IMG/VR virus record: IMGVR_UViG_3300048838_000710
Coordinates: 1-39,837 of that record
DNA from: a virus
Taxonomy: Duplodnaviria; Caudoviricetes
Strand: one strand, 5' to 3'
DNA: 39,837 bases
Both the position numbers and the translations under genes were made by a program. Under the pieces are notes generated by a model. The model was not told the DNA's origin and searched no databases. It saw only the letters and a program-made list of their open reading frames with translations. The first letter of the stretch is position 1. Each line of letters starts with the position of its first letter. Positions 2,803 to 39,711 of this stretch are shown here, piece by piece.

Positions 2803-2805
2803 AGG

Positions 2806-16010: not shown

Positions 16011-17189
16011 TTAGAATCCGCTTACATCTTGGGTCATCTTGACCATCAAGACTGCACCGTCGTCAAAGGTCTTAGTTCCAACTCCGATTATTCCTTTAGG
16101 TAAATCAGCGAAACCTTTCTCTTTGTCGGCGACCTTCAAATCTACGAATTGAAGAACCATGTCAATGGATCCTCGGATCATAAATACTGAAGTTTGTCGT
16201 TGACTTGTCCAAGCATCGGTTGTATCAGTCAAACCGTCAGAGACGGCGATATCTCCATATCCTGCAAGGGTCATAACATCACCCGAATTGTCGTTCGTAG
16301 CGGTGATATTTCTTTTCCTTCGGATTATGAAGTTCTCTTTAGCACCCATCTGGACATAGTTTGTTCCAGCAGTACCAGAGTCATTGATACAAGCAACTAG
16401 ATTGGCTCTCGATGTGTCAACTGCGGAAGAGTGTCGAAGAACTCCGACATTTCCTGCTGTTACATCTGCAAGGTCATCTTGCCATTCGAAAGTAACACCG
16501 GCAATAGTTACCGTGTCACCATCAGATGGGTTAGTTGCAAGCCCAAGCGTTGCGCTCCAAGGTAGGTTGTTGTTTTGAACAACTGTCCAACCTTGCCAAG
16601 GTCCAACGACTCCATTCGAGAGAACTGAGTCCCCTAGTCGGGATTCTCGGTCAGATTTTGCTCTTCTGAGTTTAGCTACTGTGCGTGGTCCCATTACTGC
16701 GGCTCGCATAGCAGTCTCGTAAGGAGCATCAAATGCACCAAGTTTTCCTTCTGCCTCTTCGAGAATATCCAAAATGTTTGCGCTTGAAACGGCAACTGGC
16801 GAACCAGATATGCTGTGCTCAGCGTTTGCAATCTCGTCCAGGTACTTCTGTTCGACCCTGTTCATCAAACCTTTTCGGATTGATGTCAACGAGTGATTCA
16901 AAAGATCATAGGGAGTTTGGCTACTCTCAGTGATATCAATGTCTTCGGCTGCGTACTCGAAAGTATCAACTTCCAAAGTTTGCTTTGTCGCCGTTTTAGA
17001 CTCAAATGTGATATCAGAGCGTGGAGTATACGTACCCACTTGTGGGTGCGAGAGAATAGGCTTGTGAGCCTTTCTTCCATCGGATCTTATTAGGTCTTCT
17101 AGGGATTGATTAGCAAGATAAACCGCTGTGTTAGCCACATAAAGGTCAGCTTGCAGGTCTCCCCAAAATTCTTGTTTTACGTCTGTCAT
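16011..17189 (-). CDS. Major capsid protein (P22-coat-like) with inserted domain
   Basis: Follows scaffold; LSNGVVGPWQGWTVVQNNNLP matches the HK97-fold G..G...G..V..SNNLP region; strong SD. Confidence 0.82.
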   Translation of the reverse strand: MTDVKQEFWGDLQADLYVANTAVYLANQSLEDLIRSDGRKAHKPILSHPQVGTYTPRSDITFESKTATKQTLEVDTFEYAAEDIDITESSQTPYDLLNHSLTSIRKGLMNRVEQKYLDEIANAEHSISGSPVAVSSANILDILEEAEGKLGAFDAPYETAMRAAVMGPRTVAKLRRAKSDRESRLGDSVLSNGVVGPWQGWTVVQNNNLPWSATLGLATNPSDGDTVTIAGVTFEWQDDLADVTAGNVGVLRHSSAVDTSRANLVACINDSGTAGTNYVQMGAKENFIIRRKRNITATNDNSGDVMTLAGYGDIAVSDGLTDTTDAWTSQRQTSVFMIRGSIDMVLQFVDLKVADKEKGFADLPKGIIGVGTKTFDDGAVLMVKMTQDVSGF

Positions 17190-17273
17190 TTTTTCATATT
17201 CACCCCCTCACAATTAACCAAGGTCTTCTTGGTCTCAAAATTAAGTTTAAGGGAGTAGGTATCTCATGAAGTT

Positions 17274-17936
17274 TTACTTCTGTTGTGCGTTCCATTTTTC
17301 TCTCGCAGCTTTGGCTTCCTTCCAAGCCTTAACCCCTTCTTCAGAGTTAAAGTCAAAATCTTCCGGATTCAAAGGCTTCGAGGGATCATAGTCTGGCACA
17401 TGAGTTCCCTTCTTTGAGCGCTTCGGAGTCGCGTTTCTTATACGTTCTTCCTTTTCGGCCTCCTCTTTCCTTTGCAGGATATAAGGATGCTGCGCTGCCT
17501 CCCTAACAGAAATACCTTTTAGCTTGGCTAGATCTTTGACCTCATCTTTGAGTTCATCGGAGAGTTCAAGCGATTCTAGCTCTCTTGCCTCCCAACGTTC
17601 TGTCAGCTTCTGGTCAACTAACTTGTCAATATCAGGTACTTCCTGAGTTTTGGGGTTATCCCCTTCCTTCGGATTATCCTTTGGTTTTTCGGTAAGTCTT
17701 TCTTGGGCTTTGTCCCTCCAGCTTATCTTTTGCTTTATGGCTCCAGATAACCTTTCACGGTTGGCTTTTTCCCGTTCGACAATTTTGTCTAGAAGTTCAG
17801 ATTGCTCATCTGGGTCTATGCCCATCTTTTCTGCAAGGTCTTCTCTCAACTCGTTGTCGTCAACTTCCCTTGTCGCCTCCTCTTCTGCATTTTGCTCCTC
17901 GGGAGACATTTCGAGGTCTTTATTATCTTCGTCCAT
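17274..17936 (-). CDS. Capsid scaffolding protein
   Basis: Highly charged helical 220-aa protein immediately upstream of the capsid gene. Confidence 0.7.
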   Translation of the reverse strand: MDEDNKDLEMSPEEQNAEEEATREVDDNELREDLAEKMGIDPDEQSELLDKIVEREKANRERLSGAIKQKISWRDKAQERLTEKPKDNPKEGDNPKTQEVPDIDKLVDQKLTERWEARELESLELSDELKDEVKDLAKLKGISVREAAQHPYILQRKEEAEKEERIRNATPKRSKKGTHVPDYDPSKPLNPEDFDFNSEEGVKAWKEAKAAREKWNAQQK

Positions 17937-17975
17937 AGGACTATATTTTTTTGCCTCTTAACTGAGGCTGGTAAC

Positions 17976-18109
17976 AAAAAACCGCCGATCTGGCGGTCAA
18001 CTTAGAGGAAGAGAGAAAAGCGTTGTGATTAAACTCTATTCCTCTAAACAAACCGTCAGAGGTTTTCACTTCGCTTTTTAGATTTAGATGTCAATTAGCT
18101 AGTATAGCA
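17976..18109 (-). ncRNA. Promoter and structured leader (terminator/antiterminator) upstream of scaffold-capsid; possible ~120-nt sRNA
   Basis: TGC-TATACT (18109-18101); stems 18051-18060/17989-17998 and 18039-18047/18002-18010; terminator ACCGCC/GGCGGT plus T run at 17976-17997; loop carries TCACAACGCTT. Confidence 0.7.
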
Positions 18110-18117
18110 CACCCGTT

Positions 18118-18450
18118 CTATGGATGTCTAAACTTGTGTCCACAATTAGGACAAGCAACTCTAGATTTCACCTCGGCGAATTTTATCGTGTATCCTCCCC
18201 GATCTGGGTGAGAGATAAATTGTTCAGCCATCGCCACGTAGTCTTTTCCGTGTTGTTCAAGACTATACGTTCTGACTTCATGTTTACCGTCGAAGATCAC
18301 GGCATCTTTGGTTTCGGTTGCATTTTTCTTTGGGGATGTTTTTGGGGAGCCTTCTACTTCGGCAATTGCTTTCTCTAGATCTTCGGCTGACACGCCGACA
18401 TGTTTAATGCCTAGCTCTTTTGCTTTGGACTGTAAATCTTTGTAACTCAC
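18118..18450 (-). CDS. Hypothetical protein: Rho-N/HeH-like N terminus, C-terminal CPNCG zinc knuckle
   Basis: YKDLQSKAKELGI...EDLEKAI; probable leaderless GTG start at 18450. Confidence 0.65.
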   Translation of the reverse strand: MSYKDLQSKAKELGIKHVGVSAEDLEKAIAEVEGSPKTSPKKNATETKDAVIFDGKHEVRTYSLEQHGKDYVAMAEQFISHPDRGGYTIKFAEVKSRVACPNCGHKFRHP

Positions 18451-18488
18451 AGTGCATTTTGACACGTCGTAAATAGGAAAGTCAAGTA

Positions 18489-18647
18489 TCAGAATCCGTA
18501 AGATTTCTCAACGTGTTTGGCACGCATTTCTCGCTCTCTTTTCAGCTTCTCGCGAGGATCAGGACTTTGGGCTTTCTTTACCGATTCTTCGAGCCACTTC
18601 TTGATTTGGTTTTTGGTGGCCTCATTATTTGGTTTCGGTTGATTCAT
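18489..18647 (-). CDS. 52-aa hypothetical protein absent from the ORF track (MNQPKPNNE...KHVEKSYGF)
   Basis: ATGA overlap with the upstream stop; fills the gap exactly. Confidence 0.65.
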   Translation of the reverse strand: MNQPKPNNEATKNQIKKWLEESVKKAQSPDPREKLKREREMRAKHVEKSYGF

Positions 18648-18835
18648 AGAACTCGAAGATAAACAGCTTCAATATTCTTTCTGGTCAAGTCTCCTTCAAT
18701 CTCGTATTCCTTTTGTCCTTTAGTCGCATTCATCATTACTTCGTTACTCGGGGTTAGGATCAAAAAAGCACCCTCAACATCGCGTGCGGGTGCTTCTGAT
18801 AGTATTAGTTTGTTTCCTTTTAGTCTGACATTCAT
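18644..18835 (-). CDS. Hypothetical protein
   Basis: ATGA overlaps on both sides. Confidence 0.65.
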   Translation of the reverse strand: MNVRLKGNKLILSEAPARDVEGAFLILTPSNEVMMNATKGQKEYEIEGDLTRKNIEAVYLRVL

Positions 18836-19095
18836 AAGCCGAATTTTGCTTTTGCGAAGCCGATTTGCTCCTTGCTCGGTTGTTTCTTTTCTGCTGGCTC
18901 TACCAAAGGGGATAGTATCTCGTGGAGTTTGTTTCGGGCTTTGCTTCGAGCCCTCACTTCCTCTCCAGCCTGTTCATTGGTCATCTCATCAAGACCGGAA
19001 GCTGAGTCAAACTCTTCAATCTTTGCCACCATGTATTCGGTAAACTCGGCAAAAGCGGGGTACTCTTTTAGTTTTTTAATTAGCTCATCCGACAT
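18832..19095 (-). CDS. Small helical head-morphogenesis-region protein
   Basis: Perfect TGA-TATAAT 5 nt before the ATG; size and position resemble the small gene usually found between portal and scaffold. Confidence 0.7.
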   Translation of the reverse strand: MSDELIKKLKEYPAFAEFTEYMVAKIEEFDSASGLDEMTNEQAGEEVRARSKARNKLHEILSPLVEPAEKKQPSKEQIGFAKAKFGL

Positions 19096-19110
19096 ATTTC
19101 ATTATATCAC

Positions 19111-20550
19111 TTACAGTCCAAAGTTTCTTCGCATGTCCTTTCTTCGCTCCTCTCGTTGGTGTCTGGCTATTGCCTGTTGGTATTCATCTAAAGGCGACTC
19201 TGCAATCTCGTTTTGCATGGCAAGGGCGTCGGCTACGTCATCATGTGCTCCCTTCGGAAACACCCTCAGCTCATCCTCCAAATCCTTACATTCACCCTCA
19301 ATATGGTAGATAGATCCACTTGCATACCTAGGAATCAGTCCACGGATTCTTACTTCCTTCTGGGTTGATGGTTGCTTGATTGGAATGATGTTTGGGAACT
19401 TGTTTCGTTTTCTACATTCATCCTTGTAGAATGGTTCGACTGCCTTCAAATAGACTGTCTCCTCAATCCCTATCTTCTCAAACCCTTCTTCATGAAGCCT
19501 GAAGATGTACTCTAGTAGCTCTTTGGAATCGAAGTGAACCCCGATTGCTTTTAAATTCCAGTTGTTTTGTTTATCAACGTAGTTTCTAATGATTCCTGTG
19601 TTGTCGTTCTCTGGGTTTTTGCCGCCCGGATCAATTGTCGCAAACTTGCGGGTATCCAGTGCTTCTACTTCTGCCCATGATCTCGGCTTAATCCAGTTGT
19701 CCTTAAACTCCTGATTTTCTGAGGTTATTGGACTTCCTTGATAAAGAGCAGAAAACTCATATGGACCAAGAGCGTTTTCAGTCCTTCTCAACTTTGGCAC
19801 AGAGAATTTATCGGGCCAGAGTGCCTCTCCCTTTTTCCGATACTGCTCATCCTCGGTGGCAATTGCTGGGAAGTTAATTACAGTCCATTTGTCGTATTCT
19901 TCAACCCGATCTCTTTCGTCCGCTTCCTGTTTATCAAGCAACCTTCCAACCAAGTCATCTGTGTGCCATCGCGTGTTAATAACGATAATCGCAGTGTTAC
20001 TTTCCTGCCTAGTATAAAATGTAGATCTGTACCAATCCCATCGCGATTCTCGGATTGTCTCGGACTCAGCCTCTTCCCTGTTTTTAAAGATGTCATCGAC
20101 AATCCCGATCTTGAAACCTGTGCCAGTAAATGCGCCACCGGCTCCGGCCGCCATGTATCCACCATCTTCTTGTGTTTTCCAGTAGCCTTTAGCTTTCGTG
20201 TCCTTTCGAAGTCTTGTTTTAAATACCTTCTGATAGCTGTCTGACTGCATCACATCTCTAGTGTTCTGCCCGAACTTAGTTGCCAGATCACCGGAGTAAG
20301 AAGCAACTGCTATTGGCCAGTCAGGATGATGACCTAATGCCCAAGCTGAGAACAATTGTGTCGAGGTGTAGCTCTTGCCATGTCGAGGGGGACACTGGAT
20401 GATAATTCTTACATCTTTGCCTTCCTCTACTCTCTCAAGTGAGGTTTGCAATATCCCTGCCATGGTTTCATGAAACCATGTATCTTGATACTTCGGGTCA
20501 ATGGCGATACAAAAATCAATCAGATTCTTCTTTGCTTGATGCACCACCAT
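19111..20550 (-). CDS. terL: Terminase large subunit
   Basis: Walker A PPRHGKS, Walker B IGIVDD, TRWHTDDL motif, RNase H-like IDPG...HDDVADAL; probable start ATG 20550. Confidence 0.93.
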   Translation of the reverse strand: MVVHQAKKNLIDFCIAIDPKYQDTWFHETMAGILQTSLERVEEGKDVRIIIQCPPRHGKSYTSTQLFSAWALGHHPDWPIAVASYSGDLATKFGQNTRDVMQSDSYQKVFKTRLRKDTKAKGYWKTQEDGGYMAAGAGGAFTGTGFKIGIVDDIFKNREEAESETIRESRWDWYRSTFYTRQESNTAIIVINTRWHTDDLVGRLLDKQEADERDRVEEYDKWTVINFPAIATEDEQYRKKGEALWPDKFSVPKLRRTENALGPYEFSALYQGSPITSENQEFKDNWIKPRSWAEVEALDTRKFATIDPGGKNPENDNTGIIRNYVDKQNNWNLKAIGVHFDSKELLEYIFRLHEEGFEKIGIEETVYLKAVEPFYKDECRKRNKFPNIIPIKQPSTQKEVRIRGLIPRYASGSIYHIEGECKDLEDELRVFPKGAHDDVADALAMQNEIAESPLDEYQQAIARHQREERRKDMRRNFGL

Positions 20551-20956
20551 CGCCTCTTTTTCTTGCGGCGATGCGCTCGGCGATTTTGTCAATTTGAACA
20601 TCACTAAAGTGGTCAATGGGCTTATCGTCTGAAGTGTGGTCGCTTCTCTCTTTCATTCCGTGATTGTTCTGAAGGATCAGCTTGACGATGGTGGCATTAA
20701 TTTCTTTGCCGCCATAAATACCGTCGTCAATCAGTTGTTCCGCTTGGAGTGTGAGGATTGTGTCTAGGGCGTGAGCAAACTCTTTGTGTTTTTCTGCCCA
20801 GTTGTATAGGGTCTTTCTGGCTACTCCGAGGGATCGAGCGTAGCTTTCGATCTTAGGTAGGTGCATCTGTTCCCGCCCTGTGGTGGCGAGATATGCATCA
20901 AGGCACGTGGTGGCGTATTCTGGTTTGTAGTCTGTTGGTCGTCCGGCTTTTCCCAT
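20516..20956 (-). CDS. terS: Terminase small subunit
   Basis: GRPTDYKPEY, LGVARKTLYNW HTH, LQNNHGMKER; directly upstream of terL. Confidence 0.88.
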   Translation of the reverse strand: MGKAGRPTDYKPEYATTCLDAYLATTGREQMHLPKIESYARSLGVARKTLYNWAEKHKEFAHALDTILTLQAEQLIDDGIYGGKEINATIVKLILQNNHGMKERSDHTSDDKPIDHFSDVQIDKIAERIAARKRGDGGASSKEESD

Positions 20957-20985
20957 AAGCGATATGCTTGCCCAATCGGGCTTTC

Positions 20986-21010
20986 CACAACGCTTATGTC
21001 AAGTATAACA
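20986..21010 (-). promoter_or_regulatory. terS promoter with +1 motif AAGCGTTGTG
   Basis: TGT-TATACT, 6 nt, AAGCGTTGTG (20995-20986). Confidence 0.7.
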
Positions 21011-21026
21011 CATGGTATACTGTAAT

Positions 21027-21215
21027 ATGATAGCTACATTTGCAGGAATACTGATTCTTCTAGTCCCTGCTATTAGTGTGATTTGGCTACTTCGAAGATT
21101 TGATAGTTTTAAAAGACTCAGTGATGATCGTCCTTGGTATAAGGATATTTGGAAGCCAATTGCATTTCTCTCTTTCCTGTCCCTACTCAAGACAGTGCTA
21201 CATTACTGGCCGTAA
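21027..21215 (+). CDS. Small 2-TM membrane protein antisense to the late region (moron-like)
   Basis: TGG-TATACT 5 nt before ATG 21027; two hydrophobic segments. Confidence 0.6.
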   Translation: MIATFAGILILLVPAISVIWLLRRFDSFKRLSDDRPWYKDIWKPIAFLSFLSLLKTVLHYWP

Positions 21216-23371
21216 AGACCTACTCCAAGAAGTGATGGATCAACCCCATATTTCTGTGCCAACCCTTGATAATACGCATCAATAGGAGCCTGTCTTTGTT
21301 GATAGGTCTGAAAGACTCTCCCAGCTTCATTTTTGAAGGCAACTCTTTGCTTATCGCTTAGCCTATCCCCTTTCAGTGCTTTGTTGTATTGCTGAGTGAT
21401 TCGCTCTGGTATTCCTGATGTATTCTCGGCTGTAGCAAATTCACCTTCCCTTACAACGCTTCCCGGATCAAGCATCTTCATGAAAGCGAATATAAGTGAT
21501 ACATCTCCCGCTGCCGTGTCGGAGGTATTCACTACTTTATCGTATGAGTTCACTATATCTATCCAATTGTTCTCCTGAGTTCGTTTGAAGTACTCAGTTC
21601 GAAGAGAATCGGCAACTTGCATAGTCTCTGCACTTATGGTGTCAGTATCAGTTGCCAGCATGTCATAAACTGCTCCAACCTCCTCGAGATCTTTGCTTGA
21701 TGCACCCTCAGACAAAGCTAGAGCCAACACCTGACGTTTTGTTAGGCTGCCAAATGGATTAGTTGGTGAAGGTGTTGCTGTGTTCACACTAGGTTGAGTG
21801 TTGCCGCTTGGATTTGCCGGATTGGAGAGTGATGACGTTACCTGTGTAACTTGCTCGATCTCCTCATCTGTGAGACCTTGCTCCCTCAGTGCGGCCGGCG
21901 ACATAGCCGCAAGCCTTTGAAGGTTTGGATTCTGCAATATGTTGCTGGTTGGCAGATCGTCGGCTTTCATTCCTAGTTTTTTCAAAACCGTACTCGATAC
22001 ATCTCTTAGTTTTTGAGTCACTGCCGCAGGCACTGAAGTTCCCGCAATCCTTTGTACTGGTGGATTGGATCTTGCGCTGGAGAGTGGACTTGCCGCCTGA
22101 TAAAGATTGCTTTCATCTAGCAGTAGCTTCTTAACCTCTGGTGCAACGCCTTTGATTGCATCGTCAAGACTGTCCCATGCCGCCATGACTATCTTCTCTC
22201 TTGAATTTAGAGTCGTTCCGTTTTCAAGTTTCTTGAAGATACTGGCAGAGTCTTGGTTGAGAACTTTCTTCATTTCTCTAAGAGTTGCTAGTGGAATATC
22301 ATCAACTCCTGCTTTTAAAAGGTCTTGTCCTGTGTCGGCTCCCACTTCACCAGCAGCGACAAGTAGATCATTCAAGTAGCCGTTTATCTCATTGACGGCT
22401 TGTTTTTGAGTCAAATCTTTGGTGCGCAGGGAACTTTTGAGATTCTTCATAAAGGCTTCACGGATAGATTCCTTTGATACTGCGATATCTGGATTTTCTT
22501 TGATGAAGTTGCCTATCTTCCCCTCAATCTCGCTCATCACTGGCTCTAGTTTTTCATATTGGCTTTGAGCAGTACCTTCAAAACCATATTTATCAAGAGT
22601 CTTATTGATTGCCTTCTCCTTACCGGCTCCAAATATGGAAGGCTTAACCTTAATTTTTCTCGTACCTTCCTCGATTGCCTCGGCTTGCCTTACTAGATTT
22701 CCACCTTTTCCTCTTGCCCAAGAAATCATCCCACCGACACCCTCTAGTACACCTGCTGTGGCCGCGCCAGTTACACCCGCTGTGGCTACCGACTCGGCAG
22801 TTGCGTCTTCTCTCGAGAACTCAGATAAAACTCCTGCTGCTGCTCCGGGAAGAAACACTTTTGAAGTAAGGCTTACTCCTCTTCCAAATGGAATGGCATA
22901 AGACATGCCTCCAGCAGTCGCTTTCGCACCTGTCAGAGCAATCTCGCCTTTGTTTTCAAGCTTGTCCTCATCAACAAAGAAAGTGGATCGTTCTTGCGAG
23001 AGCTTCTTAACCTCTTCATCGGAAAGATTTTCCCCTAGTATCAGTTTCCTAAAGGTAGGATCAAACGCGAACCTGCCTGCCTGTGCTCCAGCCTCACCAA
23101 CAAATTTGACGTAATCGATTCCAGGCTGAACAATGCCCTTTATTAGAGACGATACAAAGCCACCACTCTCTGGCTCTTGTGAAGTTGAAAATGATTGGTT
23201 CGCTGTAGTTTTAGGTTGACCCCCTCCTGAATACGAGACATCTACTGCATTGGACGCTCCTCCAAACTCCCTTGCTTTCTTTTCAATCTCGGACGCGATT
23301 TGTTCGTCAGTTAGACCGGCTTGTTTTGCTCGTCTGGTAAACTCCTGTAGTTGATTTTGACTTAATGCCAT
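21203..23371 (-). CDS. Probable DNA ejection/internal virion protein
   Basis: 722-aa helical A/G-rich protein after the tail genes; C-terminal KMLDPGSVVREGEF motif seen in podovirus-type ejection proteins. Confidence 0.65.
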   Translation of the reverse strand: MALSQNQLQEFTRRAKQAGLTDEQIASEIEKKAREFGGASNAVDVSYSGGGQPKTTANQSFSTSQEPESGGFVSSLIKGIVQPGIDYVKFVGEAGAQAGRFAFDPTFRKLILGENLSDEEVKKLSQERSTFFVDEDKLENKGEIALTGAKATAGGMSYAIPFGRGVSLTSKVFLPGAAAGVLSEFSREDATAESVATAGVTGAATAGVLEGVGGMISWARGKGGNLVRQAEAIEEGTRKIKVKPSIFGAGKEKAINKTLDKYGFEGTAQSQYEKLEPVMSEIEGKIGNFIKENPDIAVSKESIREAFMKNLKSSLRTKDLTQKQAVNEINGYLNDLLVAAGEVGADTGQDLLKAGVDDIPLATLREMKKVLNQDSASIFKKLENGTTLNSREKIVMAAWDSLDDAIKGVAPEVKKLLLDESNLYQAASPLSSARSNPPVQRIAGTSVPAAVTQKLRDVSSTVLKKLGMKADDLPTSNILQNPNLQRLAAMSPAALREQGLTDEEIEQVTQVTSSLSNPANPSGNTQPSVNTATPSPTNPFGSLTKRQVLALALSEGASSKDLEEVGAVYDMLATDTDTISAETMQVADSLRTEYFKRTQENNWIDIVNSYDKVVNTSDTAAGDVSLIFAFMKMLDPGSVVREGEFATAENTSGIPERITQQYNKALKGDRLSDKQRVAFKNEAGRVFQTYQQRQAPIDAYYQGLAQKYGVDPSLLGVGLYGQ

Positions 23372-23389
23372 ATGTTCATATTACACTAT

Positions 23390-24631
23390 TTAGTTGGACA
23401 ACTTAATCCATCCATTTGCTGTGTATCTCCATTTAGTTCCTGTTCCATCGGTCCATATTGTTCCGATTCCTCCTGCGGGAGAGAAATTTGGTTTCCCTGC
23501 ATATGATCCAACAGATGAATTTAGAACTTCATTCCAAAGAAGATCCACATTCACTTGGCTTTGTGTACCACTTCCAAGTCCTTCTACATCATATCCATAG
23601 TCAGCGAGATTCGAGAGGAAGGAATTGGAATCAAATCCGCTTCCACTACCAGTGATTTGTTTTCGGTAATACTGCTTATTGCCTTGTGAGTCAGTGATAG
23701 TAATGAGTTGACTACTTGGGACGCTTTTTGGATCAGTTATAGTCACATATCCACTCGTCGCCATCTGATTCGATACTTCCATGACTTCGCGACGATATTG
23801 TGCCTGTTGCAGTTTGGAATTGATTTGGTCTATAGAATCGTTAAGTGATACGCCCGCTTCTCCCATAAGGTAAGCTGTTTCTGGGTTTATCATCAGCTCT
23901 TTGATGTAATCAACTGTAGCCTCAGCTCGACTAAGGTCATTCTTCAATAGACCAGTCTTTTCTTGGGCTATTCTCTTAGAATCTTCGTCGAGGGAAATGA
24001 TGTCGCGGTTGGCGAGGTTCAATACCGTTTCATAGTAGGAAAGCTGGTCCAGTCTGTCTTGGGTAATTGCATTTATGCTCCTATCAATCATGTTGTAGGC
24101 TTGTCCAATCTGACCGTTGCGTGCGTTGATCACTGCTTCAATAACTCCTGACCTTGCCGCTACGTCATTCATTGTTTGCTGTACGCGTGGATTTCGAACG
24201 GCCGCTAAGCCGGTGACTCCCTGCTGTTGGCGAATGAGATCGTTTCCTTCGGTCAATAACTGATCGAGTTCATCAACTAGCTTCTGATTTTCATCGAAGT
24301 TCTTGTTAATGTGCAGACGCTCTCTTTCTTGCGTCTCTAAATCTTCTCTAAATGGTTGTGTTAGGGGTTCAACCTTTTTGAGGGTGTCTTGCTCTAGCTT
24401 TCTAGCCTCAGTCATTTGTTGCTGGTTCTGCGACTGTTGTCGTGTCAGTTCAGAATCAAGAGCGCTTCTTGCTCTTTCCACCTCTGCATTGAGTGAGCCT
24501 GAGGAATAGGGGAGATTGACTGGAGCCTGTAAGTTCTTGGCACTAAAGTCCGCTTTGGCTTCGGTTTCACCCCATCCGGTATACGACACAGTGCCAAATT
24601 GTTGTAAAGCTTGTTGTTCTGTAAGACCCAT
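23390..24631 (-). CDS. Probable ejection/internal virion protein
   Basis: Q/N-rich coiled-coil protein between the tail gene and the large ejection protein. Confidence 0.55.
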   Translation of the reverse strand: MGLTEQQALQQFGTVSYTGWGETEAKADFSAKNLQAPVNLPYSSGSLNAEVERARSALDSELTRQQSQNQQQMTEARKLEQDTLKKVEPLTQPFREDLETQERERLHINKNFDENQKLVDELDQLLTEGNDLIRQQQGVTGLAAVRNPRVQQTMNDVAARSGVIEAVINARNGQIGQAYNMIDRSINAITQDRLDQLSYYETVLNLANRDIISLDEDSKRIAQEKTGLLKNDLSRAEATVDYIKELMINPETAYLMGEAGVSLNDSIDQINSKLQQAQYRREVMEVSNQMATSGYVTITDPKSVPSSQLITITDSQGNKQYYRKQITGSGSGFDSNSFLSNLADYGYDVEGLGSGTQSQVNVDLLWNEVLNSSVGSYAGKPNFSPAGGIGTIWTDGTGTKWRYTANGWIKLSN

Positions 24632-24650
24632 AAATGCGTTCTAAAACTGT

Positions 24651-24672
24651 CACAACACTTTACAAAATCATA
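24651..24672 (-). promoter_or_regulatory. Promoter with +1 motif variant AAGTGTTGTG
   Basis: TATGAT (24672-24667), 6 nt, AAGTGTTGTGAC. Confidence 0.65.
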
Positions 24673-24688
24673 ATACTACAATATCCGC

Positions 24689-24961
24689 CTAGATGATATT
24701 CAGATTTCCAGACAATATTGTGAGTGTCCCGTCCATACCTACCTTGAATGGAGCATCCTCAAAATCTGCCGCTCCCAACCAGATCCCATTGTCATCTGAA
24801 CCAAATACGTTATCTCCCTGACCCCTTTTGAATACTCGAGAGAATGCCTGCAAACCACCTATTGATTCCGCAAATGGCATTGCTCCTGCAACATAAGGTG
24901 TGACCAGCTCTTGCTCGGCTGCTAAGAGGTTTTTAAATTTAGGTGTTAAATCTTTTGCCAT
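24689..24961 (-). CDS. Small tail-associated protein
   Basis: TAATG overlap with the tail gene; NGIWLGAADFEDAPFKVGMDG beta motif. Confidence 0.6.
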   Translation of the reverse strand: MAKDLTPKFKNLLAAEQELVTPYVAGAMPFAESIGGLQAFSRVFKRGQGDNVFGSDDNGIWLGAADFEDAPFKVGMDGTLTILSGNLNII

Positions 24962-26916
24962 TATCGTTCTACAAAGTTTCCCAACAAGATAATCTTTCTT
25001 ATCGGACAGTTGTTGGTCGTGTCTCCGTTTGAATAATCAACCGATACCCTCACATCCTCCACTGGTACAAGGTCAATCGTTCTAAACACATGTCTTGTGC
25101 TGTTTTCCCCTGTTACTTCGACTGCCGTTGATGTCTCCGCTCCCTGATTCCCTTCAAGTGTTATATCGGCTTGGGCGTCAGATCCCAGAGCTTTTGTCGC
25201 GACGATAACTGTATGAACCTTTCCCAACATCCTTTCTTTCGTTAAATCTACAAACACGCTTTTCCAATTTGATGTAGTCGATAATCCGCTAAACTTAGCC
25301 AGGCGGTGGTTCGTGCCTCCATCAGTGCTTGCGATCATCGGAGTTCCAAACGGTGCAGCTATTGCGCCCAATGTGCTATGACCACCATCGGCGAGGGTAG
25401 AAACTTGTATCGGTAGTTGTTCTACAGAAGCCCCTACAGTCCAAGCATCGCCACTTGATGCGAAGAGTATTGTGTTCTTGTAGAGTGTCTTCTGTCTATG
25501 GTCCGGCAGCGTACCCGAGAAGTATCGAAGAGGTTTTATCTGTCTACCCGAAAGCCACCCGACTGTAAATGCTCCCGAGCTGTTATCTTGATAGGCTACG
25601 TAAACAATACCGTTAAGAACATACAGAAACCCTATCTTTTGGCTTCCCAAGCCCGCTTCGTCTGAGAGGATGTTTGATATAGCCGAACCATCATAGAGGT
25701 ATATTTGACCTCGCCTACCTTCTCCATAGTTAACAGCTATCCACCATAGATTAGAATGAAAGACAACATCAGCGATCTCAGCTCCTTCCCCAAAGTCAAG
25801 TTTCTGAACATCTAAGATAGATGATCCTTCAACATACACCCCCAAGTAACGGCCGTTACCAAAGACCATGATGTCTTCCTTTGTCGCTGATGGGTGCAGG
25901 GCATTCTCAAGTGCCTGATCGGCTGAAGAACCCCATGTTTCGATTAGCTCTCCATCGGTGCTGGCGTCCGTGTAATAGACAGTGATTCTCACATGATCTA
26001 TATTGGCAATTGGTCCGGTCTCGCTAACACTCACTGAGATTGCTACACCGAAATCGCTTGCGTTTATGTCAGTATATGCCCAAGTTGTGCCCCATAAATC
26101 TGTGCTGCTTCCATGAGTGACATACTGAGGAGATGTAGGCCAATTATCCGATTCCGCTCTATCTGTTACTCCGATAGTGCCTCCCTTAACTATTCGTACT
26201 CTTTCATCAGTGATATCTCCTCCTGCTCCAGGGTCATTGAACTTATTAATCTCAACTTTTATTCCCTGTATCGTTGCCGTCGATGGGATGTCAAATCCAA
26301 AGTTGGTGATCTTCAAGTATTGACTTGGATCTGTCGTAGATGGTTCGAATGCAGCTAGATCGCCATCACCTAGCTCCTCAACTCCTTCACTCAAAGTACC
26401 CGAAACACCTGCCCATGCTTCATTTCCATATGAATTGTCGTTGGCGGCTGTCTCAGGACTCCTGATCTTATAGAGCTCATCTAGTGGCATGGCGGCAATA
26501 TCACCATCGCTCGATCGGTTATAGAAAACATAAAGATGTTTCTTGAGTCGGATTGCGCTCTCTCCCGCAGTCATATTGGTAATCGTTTGAGGCCATGAAG
26601 GAGTTCCCCCACTTACAACTGTAGTAGGGGTGATTTTAAAGAACTTTGTTGTACCAACCCCAAAGGTAGTACTGGAATCAACTGGCTTATCTAGAATTGT
26701 ACGGATGAGCTGATCAACTACCCCTGCTTGCGATCCGTTGGTCAGATCAGAGAGTCCGGGGCTTTGCTGTAAGAATCCGGGGTTGGAAATGACATCAGCA
26801 CGCATGGTGCTAGCTTGTCCTTTGTTGCCCAAGAAAGTCTTGTCATCAATATGCGCTATGGGAGCGAGTCCTTCGTTGAAGTCGGAAAATTCAATTGAAA
26901 AATCGGTATCTGCCAT
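24961..26916 (-). CDS. Tail hub/nozzle protein (P22 gp10-like beta-propeller) with an inserted beta-sandwich domain
   Basis: Beta-rich 651 aa; position after adaptor/portal and before ejection genes. Confidence 0.6.
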   Translation of the reverse strand: MADTDFSIEFSDFNEGLAPIAHIDDKTFLGNKGQASTMRADVISNPGFLQQSPGLSDLTNGSQAGVVDQLIRTILDKPVDSSTTFGVGTTKFFKITPTTVVSGGTPSWPQTITNMTAGESAIRLKKHLYVFYNRSSDGDIAAMPLDELYKIRSPETAANDNSYGNEAWAGVSGTLSEGVEELGDGDLAAFEPSTTDPSQYLKITNFGFDIPSTATIQGIKVEINKFNDPGAGGDITDERVRIVKGGTIGVTDRAESDNWPTSPQYVTHGSSTDLWGTTWAYTDINASDFGVAISVSVSETGPIANIDHVRITVYYTDASTDGELIETWGSSADQALENALHPSATKEDIMVFGNGRYLGVYVEGSSILDVQKLDFGEGAEIADVVFHSNLWWIAVNYGEGRRGQIYLYDGSAISNILSDEAGLGSQKIGFLYVLNGIVYVAYQDNSSGAFTVGWLSGRQIKPLRYFSGTLPDHRQKTLYKNTILFASSGDAWTVGASVEQLPIQVSTLADGGHSTLGAIAAPFGTPMIASTDGGTNHRLAKFSGLSTTSNWKSVFVDLTKERMLGKVHTVIVATKALGSDAQADITLEGNQGAETSTAVEVTGENSTRHVFRTIDLVPVEDVRVSVDYSNGDTTNNCPIRKIILLGNFVER

Positions 26917-26917
26917 G

Positions 26918-28693
26918 TCACTGTGTTAGTTGCCCGTTCTGTTGTGCTTGTGCTTCTCCTTCACGTTGTGCGTTTTCAGGGTTTCTATTGGTGATCTGGG
27001 TCTCTGCCGGCGCTTCCTCACGTTTCGGAGGTACTGGTATGCCACGAATCTTATAGAGCGTGTCCAGTATCCATGCAATCCTGTCTGGATCTTGTTCGAT
27101 TTGGACTAAATTAATGAGGTCTTGCACGTTATCTGCAATGTCAGAGTTCTCACCTGTAATTGTGATATGAAGTCTTGAAAGAACCCCTTTCCATATCTCT
27201 TGAGCGTTCTCAATAACAGGGTCTACTCGTCTCAACTCATCAAGCTTCTCGGCCTTAATCGCTTCAGCCATATCTTTAGTATGTGGACCAATGGCGACTA
27301 GATTTTTGATGTACCAACTCTCAACTAGAACTTCGCGGAACTGGTCAAGAATTTCTATATCCCCAACTAACCTGAAGATGTCTTTGCCTTTCATGTCCAT
27401 GACAAGCTCGGGTAACACCCATTGTCGGAATACTCGTTTGTATGGCAGTGTTAGCTTTTGTCTGAGCATGATAAACATCTTGCCTGCGTTTTGATCAGTA
27501 AGGAGTCCTAGTCTAAATGGAGTACCTGAGGGTAAGGATTCGCCTCGCACGACTTCAAAGGAATTACTTAGTCTATCGGCGTCATCCATGAGCCGGTTCC
27601 AATCAGCAATTAACTGATCCAAGCCCCTCATCCTAACATCGACTTGCATCAGGTCTTCTGTGATGACCACATCGCCGTTATCGAGATCGGCTCTGATGTT
27701 TTGTAAAACTCTTGAGTCTTTGCTTCTAAATATCACCTTGGAAGCCCAATCAAGCCCTCGAGCAAGCTGGTTCCCTATTTCATTGGCCCTGATCTGGTGG
27801 TCAAAGAGAAGCTCGTACATTCCAACCCGCCAGAATCTCCCCTCATACCTACCTCTGTGGGCGTAGATATAGTGGTCGGACATCTTACCGTCCAGTTTCT
27901 CAGCAAACAGCGTGTATTTCTTACCCGTACCATTCTTCTTAAGCCCTGCAACTATCACCTTGGCTAAGAAATATTTACTGTCATCTCCCCCACTATCGCC
28001 GTTGGCTTCGTTAAATTCTTTCTCCGACACTTCGCCTGTAAACTCAAAGACCTCATATCTTTTGCCAGTTGATTCAATTGGAGTCGTCTGAGTTGTGGCA
28101 GTGAAGCTCTTGTTGCCCAACGATTTAATCACTTCGTCGATGTTATCCCACTCGCTCATTCCCCTTAACTGCGAAGCTGTCATTTCGTGACGCTCGATGA
28201 TGTCTGTGTCGTCGATAGATTCTGCTCTTGTATTGGTGATGTAGGTATTCAGATGATCGACCATCTCGTAACCACCAGTCACCTTTTTAAAACCGACATT
28301 TCCATTAGTGACAAATTCCTCCACCGCTGCCTTAAGCTTGTCGTCCTCTCCATTTTCTGCCATCCATTCTTTGAGTGAGGCATTGGCCAAGAAAACAGCG
28401 GCGAAGTCTTGTCTAGGGTTTATCGAAAATACGAGAATGTGTTTAGTATCAAATCGTAGATTCTTAACCTCGCTATCTACTCTGGGCGCGATAATGTCAT
28501 AGTAGTAGTTGTAGGAGAGATCGGAGTTAATTTTGTTTCCGGTCAAGTCTCGATTTCTGAATTTGTAGATTCGGTTTATTAGCTTGTACTGGCTGAAATT
28601 GACCTCAGAAGAAAGTTCAATGCTTGAAGTAAGATAAGCACCAATATCTGATTCCATTCGCTTAAATAGTGTTGATTGTGTTTCTTTTGCCAT
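26918..28693 (-). CDS. Portal protein (podovirus type)
   Basis: 591 aa; GRFWRVGMYELLFDHQIRANEIGNQ stem-helix motif, GESLPSGTPF, Q-rich C terminus. Confidence 0.78.
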   Translation of the reverse strand: MAKETQSTLFKRMESDIGAYLTSSIELSSEVNFSQYKLINRIYKFRNRDLTGNKINSDLSYNYYYDIIAPRVDSEVKNLRFDTKHILVFSINPRQDFAAVFLANASLKEWMAENGEDDKLKAAVEEFVTNGNVGFKKVTGGYEMVDHLNTYITNTRAESIDDTDIIERHEMTASQLRGMSEWDNIDEVIKSLGNKSFTATTQTTPIESTGKRYEVFEFTGEVSEKEFNEANGDSGGDDSKYFLAKVIVAGLKKNGTGKKYTLFAEKLDGKMSDHYIYAHRGRYEGRFWRVGMYELLFDHQIRANEIGNQLARGLDWASKVIFRSKDSRVLQNIRADLDNGDVVITEDLMQVDVRMRGLDQLIADWNRLMDDADRLSNSFEVVRGESLPSGTPFRLGLLTDQNAGKMFIMLRQKLTLPYKRVFRQWVLPELVMDMKGKDIFRLVGDIEILDQFREVLVESWYIKNLVAIGPHTKDMAEAIKAEKLDELRRVDPVIENAQEIWKGVLSRLHITITGENSDIADNVQDLINLVQIEQDPDRIAWILDTLYKIRGIPVPPKREEAPAETQITNRNPENAQREGEAQAQQNGQLTQ

Positions 28694-29409
28694 TAAAGTC
28701 CGTATGATTTGATATTCGCCTTAGCCAGTCTCAATCTGGTCCTGTCGTCTGGGCTTCGTCTTTCGTAGTGTTCTCGGATTGCTGCCCTGATTCTTTCTTT
28801 CTCGGCCGATAGCTGACTTAGCTTCTCCTTCATACCATTGGCTACTGCGTAGCGCATTGCCGCCCCAACTGATAGGAACTGATGAAACTGAGGATTGAAG
28901 CCTGGCGACTGAGTTGTATCCGTGCTCTCAAAGTGGTTGGCTCCCCTTTGAAACTCAAGCTCTACTCCCCCCGATGATCCATAATCAGGGACTGGGATAG
29001 GGAAGAAAGCATTATCGATTTTGTAGTAAGTGGAGGGTGTACCAGTAGCTCTCAAGTCGGTATCAGACAACTCTCGCCTAAGCTTGGGCGTTAGAGTGAC
29101 GAACTTACCATCTCGATTCTTTATACGTACACGGTGGACAACCAAAGATGCATCTGGAACTGTGTAGTGATCTTGATTTGCTTCTAGGTCAACCGTAGCA
29201 ATCGGGAAATCAGCATTTGTAAAGTCATCCCACATAAAGTTGGGATCAGCTTTAAAAAGCTCTGACACCACTTCGTCATAAGCGATGTTTATGTTTCTAG
29301 TTCTATCCTTGAGGGAATAAACGGAGTTGAAGGTGCTGCCGTCACCAAAGAGGAGAAAGTCGATATCTTGGATTAAGCCATTGTAATCTGTTGTGTCGCT
29401 AAACTGCAT
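28693..29409 (-). CDS. Head-tail adaptor protein
   Basis: INIAYDEV...NQDHYTVP...TGTPSTYY...PIPVPD...FHQFLSVGAA pattern of podovirus adaptor/tail tubular protein A; start ATG 29409. Confidence 0.7.
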   Translation of the reverse strand: MQFSDTTDYNGLIQDIDFLLFGDGSTFNSVYSLKDRTRNINIAYDEVVSELFKADPNFMWDDFTNADFPIATVDLEANQDHYTVPDASLVVHRVRIKNRDGKFVTLTPKLRRELSDTDLRATGTPSTYYKIDNAFFPIPVPDYGSSGGVELEFQRGANHFESTDTTQSPGFNPQFHQFLSVGAAMRYAVANGMKEKLSQLSAEKERIRAAIREHYERRSPDDRTRLRLAKANIKSYGL

Positions 29410-29416
29410 ATACAAG

Positions 29417-29442
29417 TCACAACGCTTGTATCCATCATAGCA
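29417..29442 (-). promoter_or_regulatory. Adaptor/portal operon promoter with +1 motif AAGCGTTGTGA
   Basis: TGC-TATGAT, 6 nt, AAGCGTTGTGAC (29427-29416). Confidence 0.7.
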
Positions 29443-31135: not shown

Positions 31136-32209
31136 TTGGACTGCCCCACGACACTTGATAGCTTAGTTGAAAGCATTGATCAAACACCCATATCAGTGAC
31201 ACCTAAAGGCATTTTATATAAGGGTGATTCGCTTGAGGTGCTTAAGAAGTTTCCTGATCACAGCGTTTCATTGATTATCACAGACCCCCCCTATCATACA
31301 ACCGGCAAGAAGAATATCTATGGCGATACTGCATTCAAAGAGGATGAGCATTATCTTGAATGGATGGCTCTATATTCGAAAGAATGGATCCGAGTTTTGA
31401 AACCAAACGGCTCATTGTTTTGTTTCTGTTCCCCAGCAATGGCTGGCAGGCTAGAGGGAATACTTTTCAATTACTTTAATGTTCTTTCTCATATTGTCTG
31501 GACCAAACCCAATGAACCAGGGTTCGACGGCTGGAAACAAAAGATGAGTAAGGGTGCACTTAGACAATGGTACGATCATTCAGAGAGAATCATCTTCGCT
31601 GAACCAGCTAAACCAGGAAACCTGTACCGATCATATTTCGGAAACCTAATAAAGGAATTTAGGCTAGAAGCTGGACTAACATGTAAGTCACTAACCGAAA
31701 TGATTGGAGCGTACGGCAAAGTTAATCATGGAGGAGCCGTCGCAAACTGGGAAGCGGGCAGAAATGTCCCTAGTGAAGAACAGTACGAAAAGTTAAGATG
31801 GGCAATCAAGCAAACCAGTGGTAAGGAGATGCCCGAATATCAAGAGGTGGTGCGCCCTTTCAATGTGGATAAGACCAAAGAGTTTATTGACGTCTGGACA
31901 TTTCCTAACATTCGACCATATAACGGAAAGCATCCCGCTGAGAAACCGATAGCCTTATTGGAACATGCAATTGCGGCCACAACTTATCCCGGCGATATTG
32001 TACTAGATTGTTTTGCAGGTTCAGGTTCAACTGCAGTCGCAGCGATGAAACTTGGGAGGAGATCGGTGTCCATAGAGATCGAGCAAAAGTGGTGCAATAA
32101 AATCGCGAAACTCTTGAAATTTCTAAGCGACAGAGATTACACCATCTTTCCCGACAACTACGATTCAACGTCTATGTCACTAGAACGTTTTCAGGGCAGA
32201 CTATTCTGA
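31136..32209 (+). CDS. Beta-class N4/N6 DNA methyltransferase with internal XRE-type HTH
   Basis: ITDPPY, HPAEKP, VLDCFAGSGST; insert IKEFRLEAGLTCKSL...VANWEAGRNVP. Confidence 0.92.
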   Translation: MDCPTTLDSLVESIDQTPISVTPKGILYKGDSLEVLKKFPDHSVSLIITDPPYHTTGKKNIYGDTAFKEDEHYLEWMALYSKEWIRVLKPNGSLFCFCSPAMAGRLEGILFNYFNVLSHIVWTKPNEPGFDGWKQKMSKGALRQWYDHSERIIFAEPAKPGNLYRSYFGNLIKEFRLEAGLTCKSLTEMIGAYGKVNHGGAVANWEAGRNVPSEEQYEKLRWAIKQTSGKEMPEYQEVVRPFNVDKTKEFIDVWTFPNIRPYNGKHPAEKPIALLEHAIAATTYPGDIVLDCFAGSGSTAVAAMKLGRRSVSIEIEQKWCNKIAKLLKFLSDRDYTIFPDNYDSTSMSLERFQGRLF

Positions 32210-33171
32210 CTCACAAATCCCGATTGGTGATTTCTCTCAAGCACTTGTTGCATCCAATTAAGTGTCTTTTCGACCCCATCGTCTTTCGTGACAACATTGC
32301 AATGGTGATGTCCCCAGCCTAAATTATACGGTCTGTGATTATAGCTCCCATACCTCAGCTCCTTTATGTGAAAGAGATTTATCTCAGTTACAGTCAGATC
32401 TGGGACATCTCGGCCCTCTGCTTGAATCAGCCTTCTTAAGAAACCGTTCCCTGACAACTCTTCCAAACATAAAGGACAAACCGTCCTATTTTGCTTGTTG
32501 ATGATCCTTGCTTGAATCAACTGGTCAAAATCAAGAAGTTTGAGCTGATGACAATTATTGAGAATAGTATCTTTTCGATATATTGCCCCTTCTTTGTTCA
32601 TCCCATTGTCGCTAACGGTCTCAACCGAATCAAGACATAGCCAATATATCGCCTCCAACTGCAAACGGCACTTGGCTAAATTTGTAGTGCTAGCATATTC
32701 ATAGAGTCTAATCCCTGCACCTTTATTTTTGGATGATGTAAACCCTCTTCTTATCTTCTCGCCACCTTCTGTTGCTGTAGTAGCGGGAACCCTCGCGACA
32801 TAGTGTCCGCCAAGGGGTGCTTTTCTACTTTGTGCTGGAGTCCAACCGAGTTTCTCTGGGTTATATCGCTCCCAGTCTGATCTAGTTTCATAGAAGACAA
32901 TACAATTGTGCCCCAATTCTAAGTCTAGCGCTTCCGGCAGAACATCACTTTCAAAATAGATCTGTGGGGTGATCAGGACAATATAACCATTGTCAAAACC
33001 ATCTTCAGGAAAGAGAGTTTGAGACCCCCAGAAGGGGTAAGGTATCAAGACGGTTGAGTTTCTACCTACTCGGTTCTGGTAGATAACATCATCATCGGCT
33101 CCTCGTGTCTGCCCCGTCTTATAAATCTTCCTGTCGAGCAATTGAGGTAACTTGGGCAATCTTGGCTTCAT
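32191..33171 (-). CDS. BstXI-family type II restriction endonuclease (HNH-type active site)
   Basis: N terminus LPQLLDRKIYKTGQTRGADDDVIYQNRV recognised as BstXI family; CPLC...LFHI...NLGWGHHHCN; convergent with the MTase. Confidence 0.82.
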   Translation of the reverse strand: MKPRLPKLPQLLDRKIYKTGQTRGADDDVIYQNRVGRNSTVLIPYPFWGSQTLFPEDGFDNGYIVLITPQIYFESDVLPEALDLELGHNCIVFYETRSDWERYNPEKLGWTPAQSRKAPLGGHYVARVPATTATEGGEKIRRGFTSSKNKGAGIRLYEYASTTNLAKCRLQLEAIYWLCLDSVETVSDNGMNKEGAIYRKDTILNNCHQLKLLDFDQLIQARIINKQNRTVCPLCLEELSGNGFLRRLIQAEGRDVPDLTVTEINLFHIKELRYGSYNHRPYNLGWGHHHCNVVTKDDGVEKTLNWMQQVLERNHQSGFVSQNSLP

Positions 33172-38449: not shown

Positions 38450-38499
38450 GGCGTATGGTATCATGGTGTCAAAGTAGGTTGTCAATAGGGGTTGTAACT

Positions 38500-39616: not shown

Positions 39617-39711
39617 GTTCCCCAATTAAACACCCCGATCAACCCTCTGGTGGTGTCTTAAATCTCTTTAAATACACTTTAAACGGGATTAAATGGCATG
39701 ATGTCCATTTT

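Follow-up and report, generated by a model that had tools for sequence, protein, structure and literature searches.

A conserved candidate hairpin RNA likely to activate the virion-assembly genes of a temperate phage by base pairing with their leaders

Introduction

The phage late-gene switches known to us are proteins, among them the activators Ogr of P2 and RinA. In lambda, the protein Q ensures the coordinate switch-on of the terminase, portal, capsid and tail operons (PMC12197685), and the available part of the same review, which deals with phage small RNAs (sRNAs), names no RNA activating terminase or capsid operons. We report here the analysis of an entire virus record of 39,837 bases (IMGVR_UViG_3300048838_000710, hereafter the window), in which the leader of the scaffold/capsid operon contains a predicted hairpin RNA whose loop is complementary to a word found at the start of three other virion-gene transcription units. 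We propose that this RNA very likely pairs in trans with the corresponding messages and that it likely activates them.

Several described RNAs come close to this element. DsrA acts on rpoS as an anti-antisense activator sRNA: an inhibitory hairpin in the leader has its 5' arm taken up by DsrA, which frees the start region. The C4 RNA of P1/P7 is an antisense element, and FasX of Streptococcus pyogenes binds at the extreme 5' end of its target. The latter is a positive-acting sRNA that pairs with the ska mRNA (PMC4152353), while StxS is produced when transcription from a phage late promoter terminates early (PMC12197685). IsrK, from the Salmonella prophage Gifsy-1, is a leader RNA with a terminated short form and a read-through form; its short form opens an inactive message in trans and the downstream genes follow by translational coupling (PMC4825925). 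In satellite phage P4, the CI RNA lies as an antisense element inside the leader of the operon that it controls, with a complementary site upstream (PMC4825925). Finally, synthetic small transcription activating RNAs (STARs) bind the 5' stem of an intrinsic terminator in trans, which results in read-through; the available part of this 2015 preprint states that no natural transcription-activating sRNA was known until then (10.1101/022772).

Results and Discussion

An earlier note on the window had pointed to three minus-strand promoters sharing one layout, a -10 box followed after exactly 6 nt by a common word, and to the complement of this word on the same strand. We retrieved all four sites at the same positions. 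The pattern AAGYGTTGTGR occurs on the minus strand at 29427, 24660 and 20995, each time exactly 6 nt behind a TATGAT or TATACT hexamer, and its complement TCACAACGCTT lies at 18028-18018. The four sites are intergenic, in a window where intergenic DNA amounts to 3,717 of the 39,837 bases according to our open reading frame (ORF) list. Shuffling gave a mean of 0.12 sites and never reached four in 100 shuffles, in a test that is post hoc since the pattern came from the earlier observation. The confinement of the 10-mer to intergenic sites holds for this pattern and is lost when one mismatch is allowed, with two extra matches that are both in coding DNA (16545 and 21461). The two deviations of the words, C4T and A11G, both yield G-U pairs with the loop, as had been claimed, and a bias toward wobbles is also seen across relatives.

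With start sites inferred from the sequence, the word is predicted to stand at the 5' end of its three messages. The first target (29409..29442, minus strand) comprises a TG-extended TATGAT box (29439-29434), the word (29427-29417) and an 18-nt leader to the adaptor AUG at 29409; the predicted cis partner of the word, CACAAC (29395-29390), encloses this AUG. The second one (24631..24672, minus strand) has TATGAT at 24672-24667, the word at 24660-24650 and a 29-nt leader to the AUG at 24631, with a weak predicted cis stem. In the third (20956..21010, minus strand), a TG-extended TATACT box (21007-21002) precedes the word (20995-20985) and a 39-nt leader, of which the anti-word (20967-20957) adjoins the terS AUG at 20956 (fold z -5.1).

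The complement is indeed located, as stated in the earlier note, in the loop of the long hairpin of the scaffold/capsid leader (z -2.3 to -3.7). The predicted regulatory RNA spans about 119 nt (17976..18094, minus strand) and would be transcribed, together with the scaffold/capsid operon, from a promoter predicted at 18101..18130 by consensus match only (TAGACA, 18 nt, TG-extended TATACT). All its parts are on the minus strand. From the 5' end, it contains a degenerate copy of the word itself, AAGCGAAGTGA (18066..18076), hereafter the self word, which is intact in most relatives, then the 5' arm of the long stem (18034..18060), the antisense seed TCACAACGCTT (18018..18028) in an 18-nt loop (18033-18016) and the 3' arm (17989..18015), and it ends with a hairpin and U tract resembling an intrinsic terminator (17976..17998, stem 17998-17980), whose 5' arm shares the lower part of the 3' arm. 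Our model of the element, R1, matches the window at 17974-18078 with an E value of 7e-16, by construction.

We compared 95 loci whose capsid matches extend over more than 300 residues at 50% identity or higher; they form 49 clusters at 97%. The tree does not include four clusters (L019, L060, L094, L095) whose contigs lack the leader region. Among the 45 remaining clusters, the hairpin was assigned by eye upstream of the scaffold gene in 25 and not in the other 20, and R1 had no match in the hairpin-less loci searched. On a quick tree of the 45 capsids, presence and absence switch 4 to 9 times. In an alignment of 31 elements, from which L103 was left out as it has an insertion, the long stem displays double-sided changes in 15 of its 18 pairs and 88% of its cells are paired, versus at most 50% in slid controls and also far lower values in shuffled ones. 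RNAalifold recovered the same stem unaided. The most conserved part of the element is the loop seed.

To relate the loops to distant words, we searched intergenic DNA behind -10 hexamers for words complementary to the loop, retaining those with at least 8 Watson-Crick pairs and at most one mismatch, a mismatch being admitted as readily as a wobble. This loop-directed search, which yielded 39 tabulated sites in 16 phages, replaced an unbiased guide search over all 10-mers that recovered the loop in the window and in L002 and in which A/T-rich words swamped the others. At positions 2-9 of the 39 sites, we counted 304 Watson-Crick pairs, 7 G-U pairs and 1 mismatch, that is about five independent wobbles against one mismatch. 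The covariation expected by the earlier note was observed in five lineages, where the loop and the distant words alter together. In L103, the word GAGCGTTGTG changed at position 1 faces the loop CACAGCGCTC (3 sites). In L126, AAACGTTGTG changed at position 3 faces CACAACGTTT (2 sites, and G009:C3:99476). A change at position 10 in L127 gives AAGCGTTGTA with the loop TACAACGCTT, and changes at positions 5 and 10 in L008 give, before the portal gene, AAGCATTGTA with TACAATGCTT. Finally, L054, with 33% capsid identity, has a wholly different word, GCTCTGCGGA, behind TATAAT before a portal-like gene, and the loop TCCGCAGAGC.

A protein recognizing the word as a double-stranded site at +1, either a phage repressor or an activator, with the inverted copy as one more operator, would account for its fixed place just behind -10 boxes and for its near-invariant sequence. 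It would not explain why each genome has a single inverted copy, which always sits in a loop closed by a covarying stem, nor why the deviations are biased to G-U or why the whole-word change of L054 is matched by the loop. Indeed, exactly one inverted copy is present in 6 of the 7 virus records with at least three copies of the word; G018 has one extra inverted match without leader context. Moreover, 10 of the 11 exact words of the 1.8-Mb genome G011 are grouped within 183.9-210.2 kb of one contig, around prophage genes, and this clustering also speaks against an operator. As the partners of the word lie at variable distances, with bulges, and no protein gene was seen to vary with it, we consider an operator very improbable, in agreement with the preference for RNA pairing expressed in the earlier note.

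The presence of the RNA also goes along with that of the word. For terS, the 413-aa gene and the adaptor gene, the RNA-bearing clusters supply 28 leaders, 18 with the word, 6 leaderless and 4 unclassified. Of the 22 leaders from RNA-less clusters, none has the word; 15 have an AUG 5-8 nt behind the -10 box, that is leaderless starts, and 7 are unclassified (Fisher p 8e-7, with no correction for kinship). Adaptor starts of the leaderless type were seen three more times in phages without the RNA, and the complete record G005 has neither RNA nor word. The word occupies the position of the AUG of leaderless relatives, which is the best available support for its location at +1, and the word-hairpin looks like a cassette of 18-60 nt between the predicted +1 and the AUG.

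One could also assume that the leader is a self-contained attenuator and that the promoter words are copied 5' stabilizing hairpins, without any pairing in trans, as 5' hairpins can stabilize messages (10.1101/022772). L011 and L016, which have the RNA and its self word and no trans site in the available DNA, would fit such an assumption, but the match between word and loop is kept over distances of 5-15 kb, even after changes, and no word-leader was found without the RNA. In addition, L092 has lost the self word and the window has a degraded one, and both have kept their trans words, together with the loop in L092. Of all the explanations considered, a purely cis role is the one to which we give the least credit.

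Some observations weigh against the pairing in trans. The targets were chosen by a complementarity filter, so that the overall pairing is partly by construction. The word stands 3 to 15 nt behind the -10 box, most often 6 nt (13 of 39 sites), and 3 of the 39 lack such a box. The regulon is also variable: in RNA-bearing phages, 6 of the 28 leaders considered are of the leaderless kind, and the word is missing from the adaptor leader of G006. Altogether, these sequence comparisons nonetheless make it very likely that loop and words pair as RNAs in trans.

Several observations concern the extent of the regulon. L128 and G011:C1:183895-210172 have an expanded one, with at least 9 sense words, several of a terminator type described below and some inside operons without a -10 box. 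At G002:C1:22655 (L261), a word-hairpin leader precedes a non-marker gene, the start of which presumably resembles HNH-type proteins; this suggests that inserted genes can join the regulon.

We then considered the sign of the regulation. Thirty-eight target leaders were folded, 35 of which have a callable ORF. By eye, the word is engaged in 30 of these 35 in a cis stem whose 3' arm ends at most 2 nt from the start codon or covers it, and the stems often take in the AUG or a Shine-Dalgarno (SD)-like word (L017:5326, L015:5083). In four others, from two phages (L128:6215, 12185 and 17536; L090:9938) and none of them among the three of the window, the word makes up the 5' arm of a hairpin with a U tract behind it, a configuration also seen at a fifth site, G011:C1:204251; the last leader was unclear. 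In our models, the mean cost of opening the start region is 8.0 kcal/mol; it is 3.3 once the word is blocked, and shuffled leaders give 5.4. Blocking the word lowers the cost by at least 2 kcal/mol in 29 of the 35 leaders, and 26 are above their own shuffle mean. The modelled duplex between loop and word, about -14 to -16 kcal/mol, compares with opening costs of 6.5-8.4, leaving a net gain of 7-8 kcal/mol in all three window targets. L128:6215 stands before terS and L090:9938 before the capsid gene, and the terminator-type hairpins disappear from the models when the word is blocked. As loop pairing can only open such hairpins, only activation makes sense at these sites. The leaders are unrelated apart from the word and anti-word, and the lock would thus have been rebuilt many times.

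The earlier note had not fixed a sign and had cited the P4 CI and P1 C4 RNAs, which are repressive. Its proposal of a pairing between the leader loop and the 5' words stands, on the basis of conservation, covariation, co-loss and wobble bias, while the anatomy of the targets favors activation; the cis hairpins of the target leaders, the degenerate self word in the 5' part of the RNA, its two-state fold and the leaderless genes of phages without the RNA had been overlooked. If the RNA were a repressor of this kind, its terminated form, made in the lysogen, would silence the late messages, and the messages would be active when folded into the cis hairpin, which could shield their 5' end or, in a host used to leaderless messages, display the adjacent AUG. 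Covariation and co-loss fit either sign, and the position of the self word, before the antisense, is reminiscent of seqA in P4 (PMC4825925). Leaderless-type starts are common in the hosts: we found them in 7 of 31, 5 of 47, 14 of 52 and 13 of 30 operon-first ORFs of host DNA, with 5, 4, 3 and 2 SD words, respectively, from crude ORF calls. Yet a repressor would gain nothing from a competing cis stem arisen in many unrelated leaders and often including the AUG or the SD-like word, and the hairpin-plus-U-tract targets, one of which precedes the capsid gene, can only be opened by the loop. No clear link with an integrase appeared either: of 20 virus records, most of which are incomplete, 15 were searched, and the gene was present in 4 that bear the RNA and in 1 that does not. 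Repression is in our opinion unlikely.

In the host DNA of G009-G012 (L225-L244), leaderless-type starts outnumber SD-led ones, and the 16S rRNA retains the anti-SD tail. Our literature search found no paper on such an excess of leaderless-type starts in Patescibacteria.

Another possibility that would still be ON is that a nuclease or another protein uses the RNA as its guide or co-factor, so that the leader is trimmed to the AUG and a leaderless message restored. The cis stems end unusually precisely at the AUG, a feature that would equally follow if a cassette had been inserted between +1 and AUG. That the orthologous genes are leaderless in phages without the RNA and that SD motifs are rare in the hosts (2-5 of 30-52 operon-first ORFs) would be in line with this trimming, but terminator-class targets need no nuclease and we saw no gene whose presence follows that of the RNA: its immediate upstream neighbour, the 115-aa gene, and the small genes before that one occur in both classes of phages. 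Such a guided processing appears improbable to us.

Activation itself meets some difficulties. Nine of the 35 leaders are no more closed than their own shuffles, the hairpin of the L008 portal target is weak, and target 2 of the window is a misfit, as its opening cost rises from 3.6 to 4.8 with the word blocked. Furthermore, on the shortest leaders (18-19 nt) the duplex stops 7-8 nt short of the AUG, so that the bound RNA could itself hinder the ribosome, as a repressor would. Despite these points, we favor the hypothesis that the predicted hairpin RNA, of about 110 nt, is a trans ON switch of the virion-assembly genes, probably activating them by unmasking.

This hypothesis can be detailed as follows. 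The late promoters would be plain host promoters that fire constantly and are transcribed by the host RNA polymerase. The target messages would be born locked by their cis hairpins and remain shut until enough open RNA is present. The loop of the open RNA would then pair with their first 10 nt, and the AUG would be freed or termination prevented. Downstream genes could follow by translational coupling and relief of Rho polarity; stops and starts overlap at 28693 and 24961, and Rho is above cut-off in 3 of 4 host genomes. As to the origin of the regulon, word-hairpin cassettes may have been inserted between +1 and AUG of leaderless genes.

The RNA could control itself in the same manner. In most relatives it starts with the word, whose pairing with its own loop reaches 95% across the 31 elements, with double-sided changes in 6 of 10 pairs. 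When the nascent prefix up to the loop is folded, the 5' part pairs with the loop and the inner hairpin, to which the 5' arm of the long stem contributes, is formed in 30 of 30 elements; the pairing differs in L092, which has no self word. The inner hairpin is 71% paired across the alignment. In this closed fold, the seed is hidden and the terminator free (modelled 0.92-0.98 in 15 of 15 elements), whereas in the open fold the seed is exposed and the lower stem takes up the 5' arm of the terminator. Both folds are within 5 kcal/mol of each other in 19 of 30 elements. One could imagine that the nascent RNA first folds its 5' word onto its own loop, and that an already open molecule captures the 5' word of a new copy, which would then fold open and read through into scaffold and capsid. 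Such a self-opening would set a threshold concentration of the RNA, which could be passed once the phage DNA has replicated.

Unfortunately, not all data agree with this self-control. With the self word blocked, the modelled terminator formation falls below 0.5 in only 7 of 15 elements (0.65 in the window, against 0.96 when closed), and a U-rich tract is found in only 14 of 30. In the window, the open fold is favored by 9.5 kcal/mol and the self word is degenerate, so that this step may be weak there. In our view, the self-locking and self-amplifying step, drawn from folding models, is an almost balanced question, with a slight advantage for its absence. Somewhat more tentative still is the complete picture of a protein-free, self-amplifying RNA master switch that would open both start-codon and terminator locks, with a regulon built from cassettes and a 10-nt address reprogrammable in evolution. 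Such a switch would combine in one molecule the natural equivalents of synthetic riboregulators and of STARs.

The RNA might also have other sources. No terminator-like site is listed on the minus strand between terS and the RNA, and read-through from the terminase operon could therefore supply it as well. L001, L042, L106 and L127 have an RNA without a clear -10 box of its own, which may come from read-through. In the same four loci, a stretch containing CTTTAA, which we take to be similar to a boxA antitermination signal, lies just upstream of the 5' word. The L126 prophage carries the RNA twice: the additional copy, at L126:14950-15043 (G009:C3, about 120412-120505), has the variant loop of the first and a terminator, and precedes a 112-aa gene. 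Directly before the scaffold AUG, the window (17937-17965) and its relatives with and without the RNA have a small conserved hairpin, an A run and GTCCT. Other long hairpins occupy the same place before the scaffold gene at, approximately, L051:9160-9260, L052:4750-4830, L111:9220-9290, L112:9220-9290 and L046:9215-9300. In L051, a 5' word is complementary to its own loop and no target was found, and the late genes of L111 and L112 are leaderless. The hand-picked loops of L046, L047, L052, L055, L056, L109, L111, L112 and L051 gave no convincing targets, the long hairpins there being other ones.

The virion genes of the window, all on the minus strand, are arranged in the order adaptor, probable portal, 651-aa and 90-aa genes, then 413-aa and 722-aa genes, then terS, terL and small genes, and finally probable scaffold and capsid. 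Of the labels used in the earlier note, terS, terL, major head protein and SU10 adaptor agree with family matches and portal with look-alikes in the Atlas alone, while scaffold and ejection come from position only. Behind target 1, the first gene encodes the SU10-type adaptor (28693..29409, PF24175). The start of the probable portal gene (26918..28693) overlaps its stop; the portal product has Atlas look-alikes with SU10/P22 portal families, a weak PHROG match and no sequence match in the PDB. The 651-aa and 90-aa genes (24689..26916), downstream in the same operon, have no family match and are probably tail genes by position. Target 2 is followed by the 413-aa and 722-aa genes (21203..24631), the positional ejection genes, and target 3 by the terminase small and large subunit genes terS and terL (19111..20956, family matches). 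The conserved 115-aa gene (18118..18465), without an informative Atlas or NCBIfam match for its product, is found in phages with and without the RNA and, as far as seen, is not part of the switch. Behind the RNA (16011..17936) lie the probable scaffold gene (17936-17274), named by position, and the major capsid gene (17189-16011), by phrog_267.

The window contains an integrase gene (38455-39588, family matches), so that we consider it to be a temperate phage. A tRNA-Lys (79-150) and its partial repeat at the right end (about 39640-39690) are probably the attachment sites. Two other regions may be mentioned: at 31136-33171, an N6/N4 methylase gene is convergent with a BstXI-type restriction endonuclease gene, and at 2437-4973 a TrwB-like ATPase gene and two neighbours are common to L030, L039, L042, G001 and G006.

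Relatives by capsid protein are found in genomes of Ca. Shapirobacteria (L127) and of Patescibacteria UBA924 (L129). The L128 genome is annotated as Gammaproteobacteria, yet its 16S is 71% like that of E. coli and a 71-nt 3' 16S stretch is identical with that of UBA924, in the class of which the genome is placed. G009 and G011 also carry a Gammaproteobacteria annotation; the 16S and class of G011 point to Patescibacteria, and G009 (1.2 Mb) has no 16S match. Judging from the genomes of its relatives, the host of the window phage would belong to Patescibacteria.

We also looked for the element more widely. Scanning viral contigs for a self word and a loop gave 18 stretches, and 3 of the 9 inspected are from the same phage family. 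L211, L212, L219, L221, L222 and L223 have chance-like inverted matches without a marker gene and were discarded; R1 missed the three of them that were searched. A scan by terL alignment gave 80 loci, mostly distant terminases, and R1 had no match in L132-L136, taken from it. Concerning a host-encoded version, R1 matched 2 of 151 host-class genomes, both at known prophage sites, so that none was found among these genomes. A mimic of rRNA processing was envisaged from a word behind the 16S gene of G012 and dropped, this word having its own promoter-like site ahead of a small ORF and no complement in the vicinity. This chromosomal site (G012:C7:38763-38772, L245), where AAGCGTTGTGACGC with a small hairpin precedes the short ORF, is either a chance occurrence or a host target of a related phage RNA.

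Comparison with known systems

A conserved RNA-RNA circuit is very likely real here, it is likely activating, and we found no description of a base-pairing activator RNA with this architecture. A cmscan of the whole window against Rfam up to an E value of 1 gave the tRNA-Lys and a sub-threshold chance match elsewhere, and left the element unmatched; our literature search found no description of it. The word is absent from six supplementary files of the phage structured-RNA survey PMC10690425, of which files 1, 2 and 4, outside this search, may list an unannotated candidate.

If our proposal is correct, the timing and the coupling of virion assembly would run through one short RNA-RNA address. 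Nature would then offer a case of an sRNA that prevents termination at intrinsic terminators, and the system would illustrate how a regulon can be added onto leaderless genes. It would also give an insight into gene control in Patescibacteria, a group with few tractable systems. The natural seed variants (AAGCG, GAGCG, AAACG, AAGCA and GCTCTGCGGA) are ready for cross-tests of specificity and are possible orthogonal parts.

A parallel can be drawn with lambda Q for the coordinate control of late operons. Nevertheless, Q, P2 Ogr and RinA are proteins acting on DNA or RNA polymerase, and no family of protein late-gene activators, including a Q-like one, was found by family searches in the window, where many ORFs have no family match. 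FasX shares the positive action at the 5' end of an mRNA and differs in acting by stabilization, without a cis lock or a shared word. Like IsrK, our RNA is a predicted phage leader that would open inactive messages in trans, and it may have a terminated and a read-through form, to judge from the terminator-like hairpin of the window and the U-rich tract of 14 of 30 elements; but IsrK targets its own long isoform and works through the protein antiterminator AntQ (PMC4825925), whereas here a single loop would address several unlinked operons of virion genes, the targets being unlinked leaders and not the ORF downstream of the RNA. The organization of P4 CI and C4, an antisense element within a leader and a complementary site upstream, is also found here. 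Nonetheless, CI causes termination and immunity, is cut from a precursor and needs a downstream seqC (PMC4825925). In our case, the targets are distant promoters and the sign predicted by folding models is ON; no complement resembling seqC lies between the element and the scaffold start in the listed loci, and L090 has one between scaffold and capsid.

The anti-antisense activators DsrA and StxS also have their binding site in the 5' arm of a cis stem hiding the start region, as predicted for 30 of our 35 leaders. Still, they act on one or a few host messages through imperfect pairing and Hfq, while the element described here would use a near-perfect 10-mer at +1 for a whole phage regulon. In its working, the RNA would resemble IsrK and the DsrA-type activators and, at some sites, the STARs, and it has a leader layout in common with P4 CI, yet it cannot be placed in any one of these groups. 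The geometry of the STARs is that of L128:6215, 12185 and 17536 and of L090:9938; yet STARs are engineered, whereas in our case a single natural loop seems to act on terminator locks as well as on start-codon locks.

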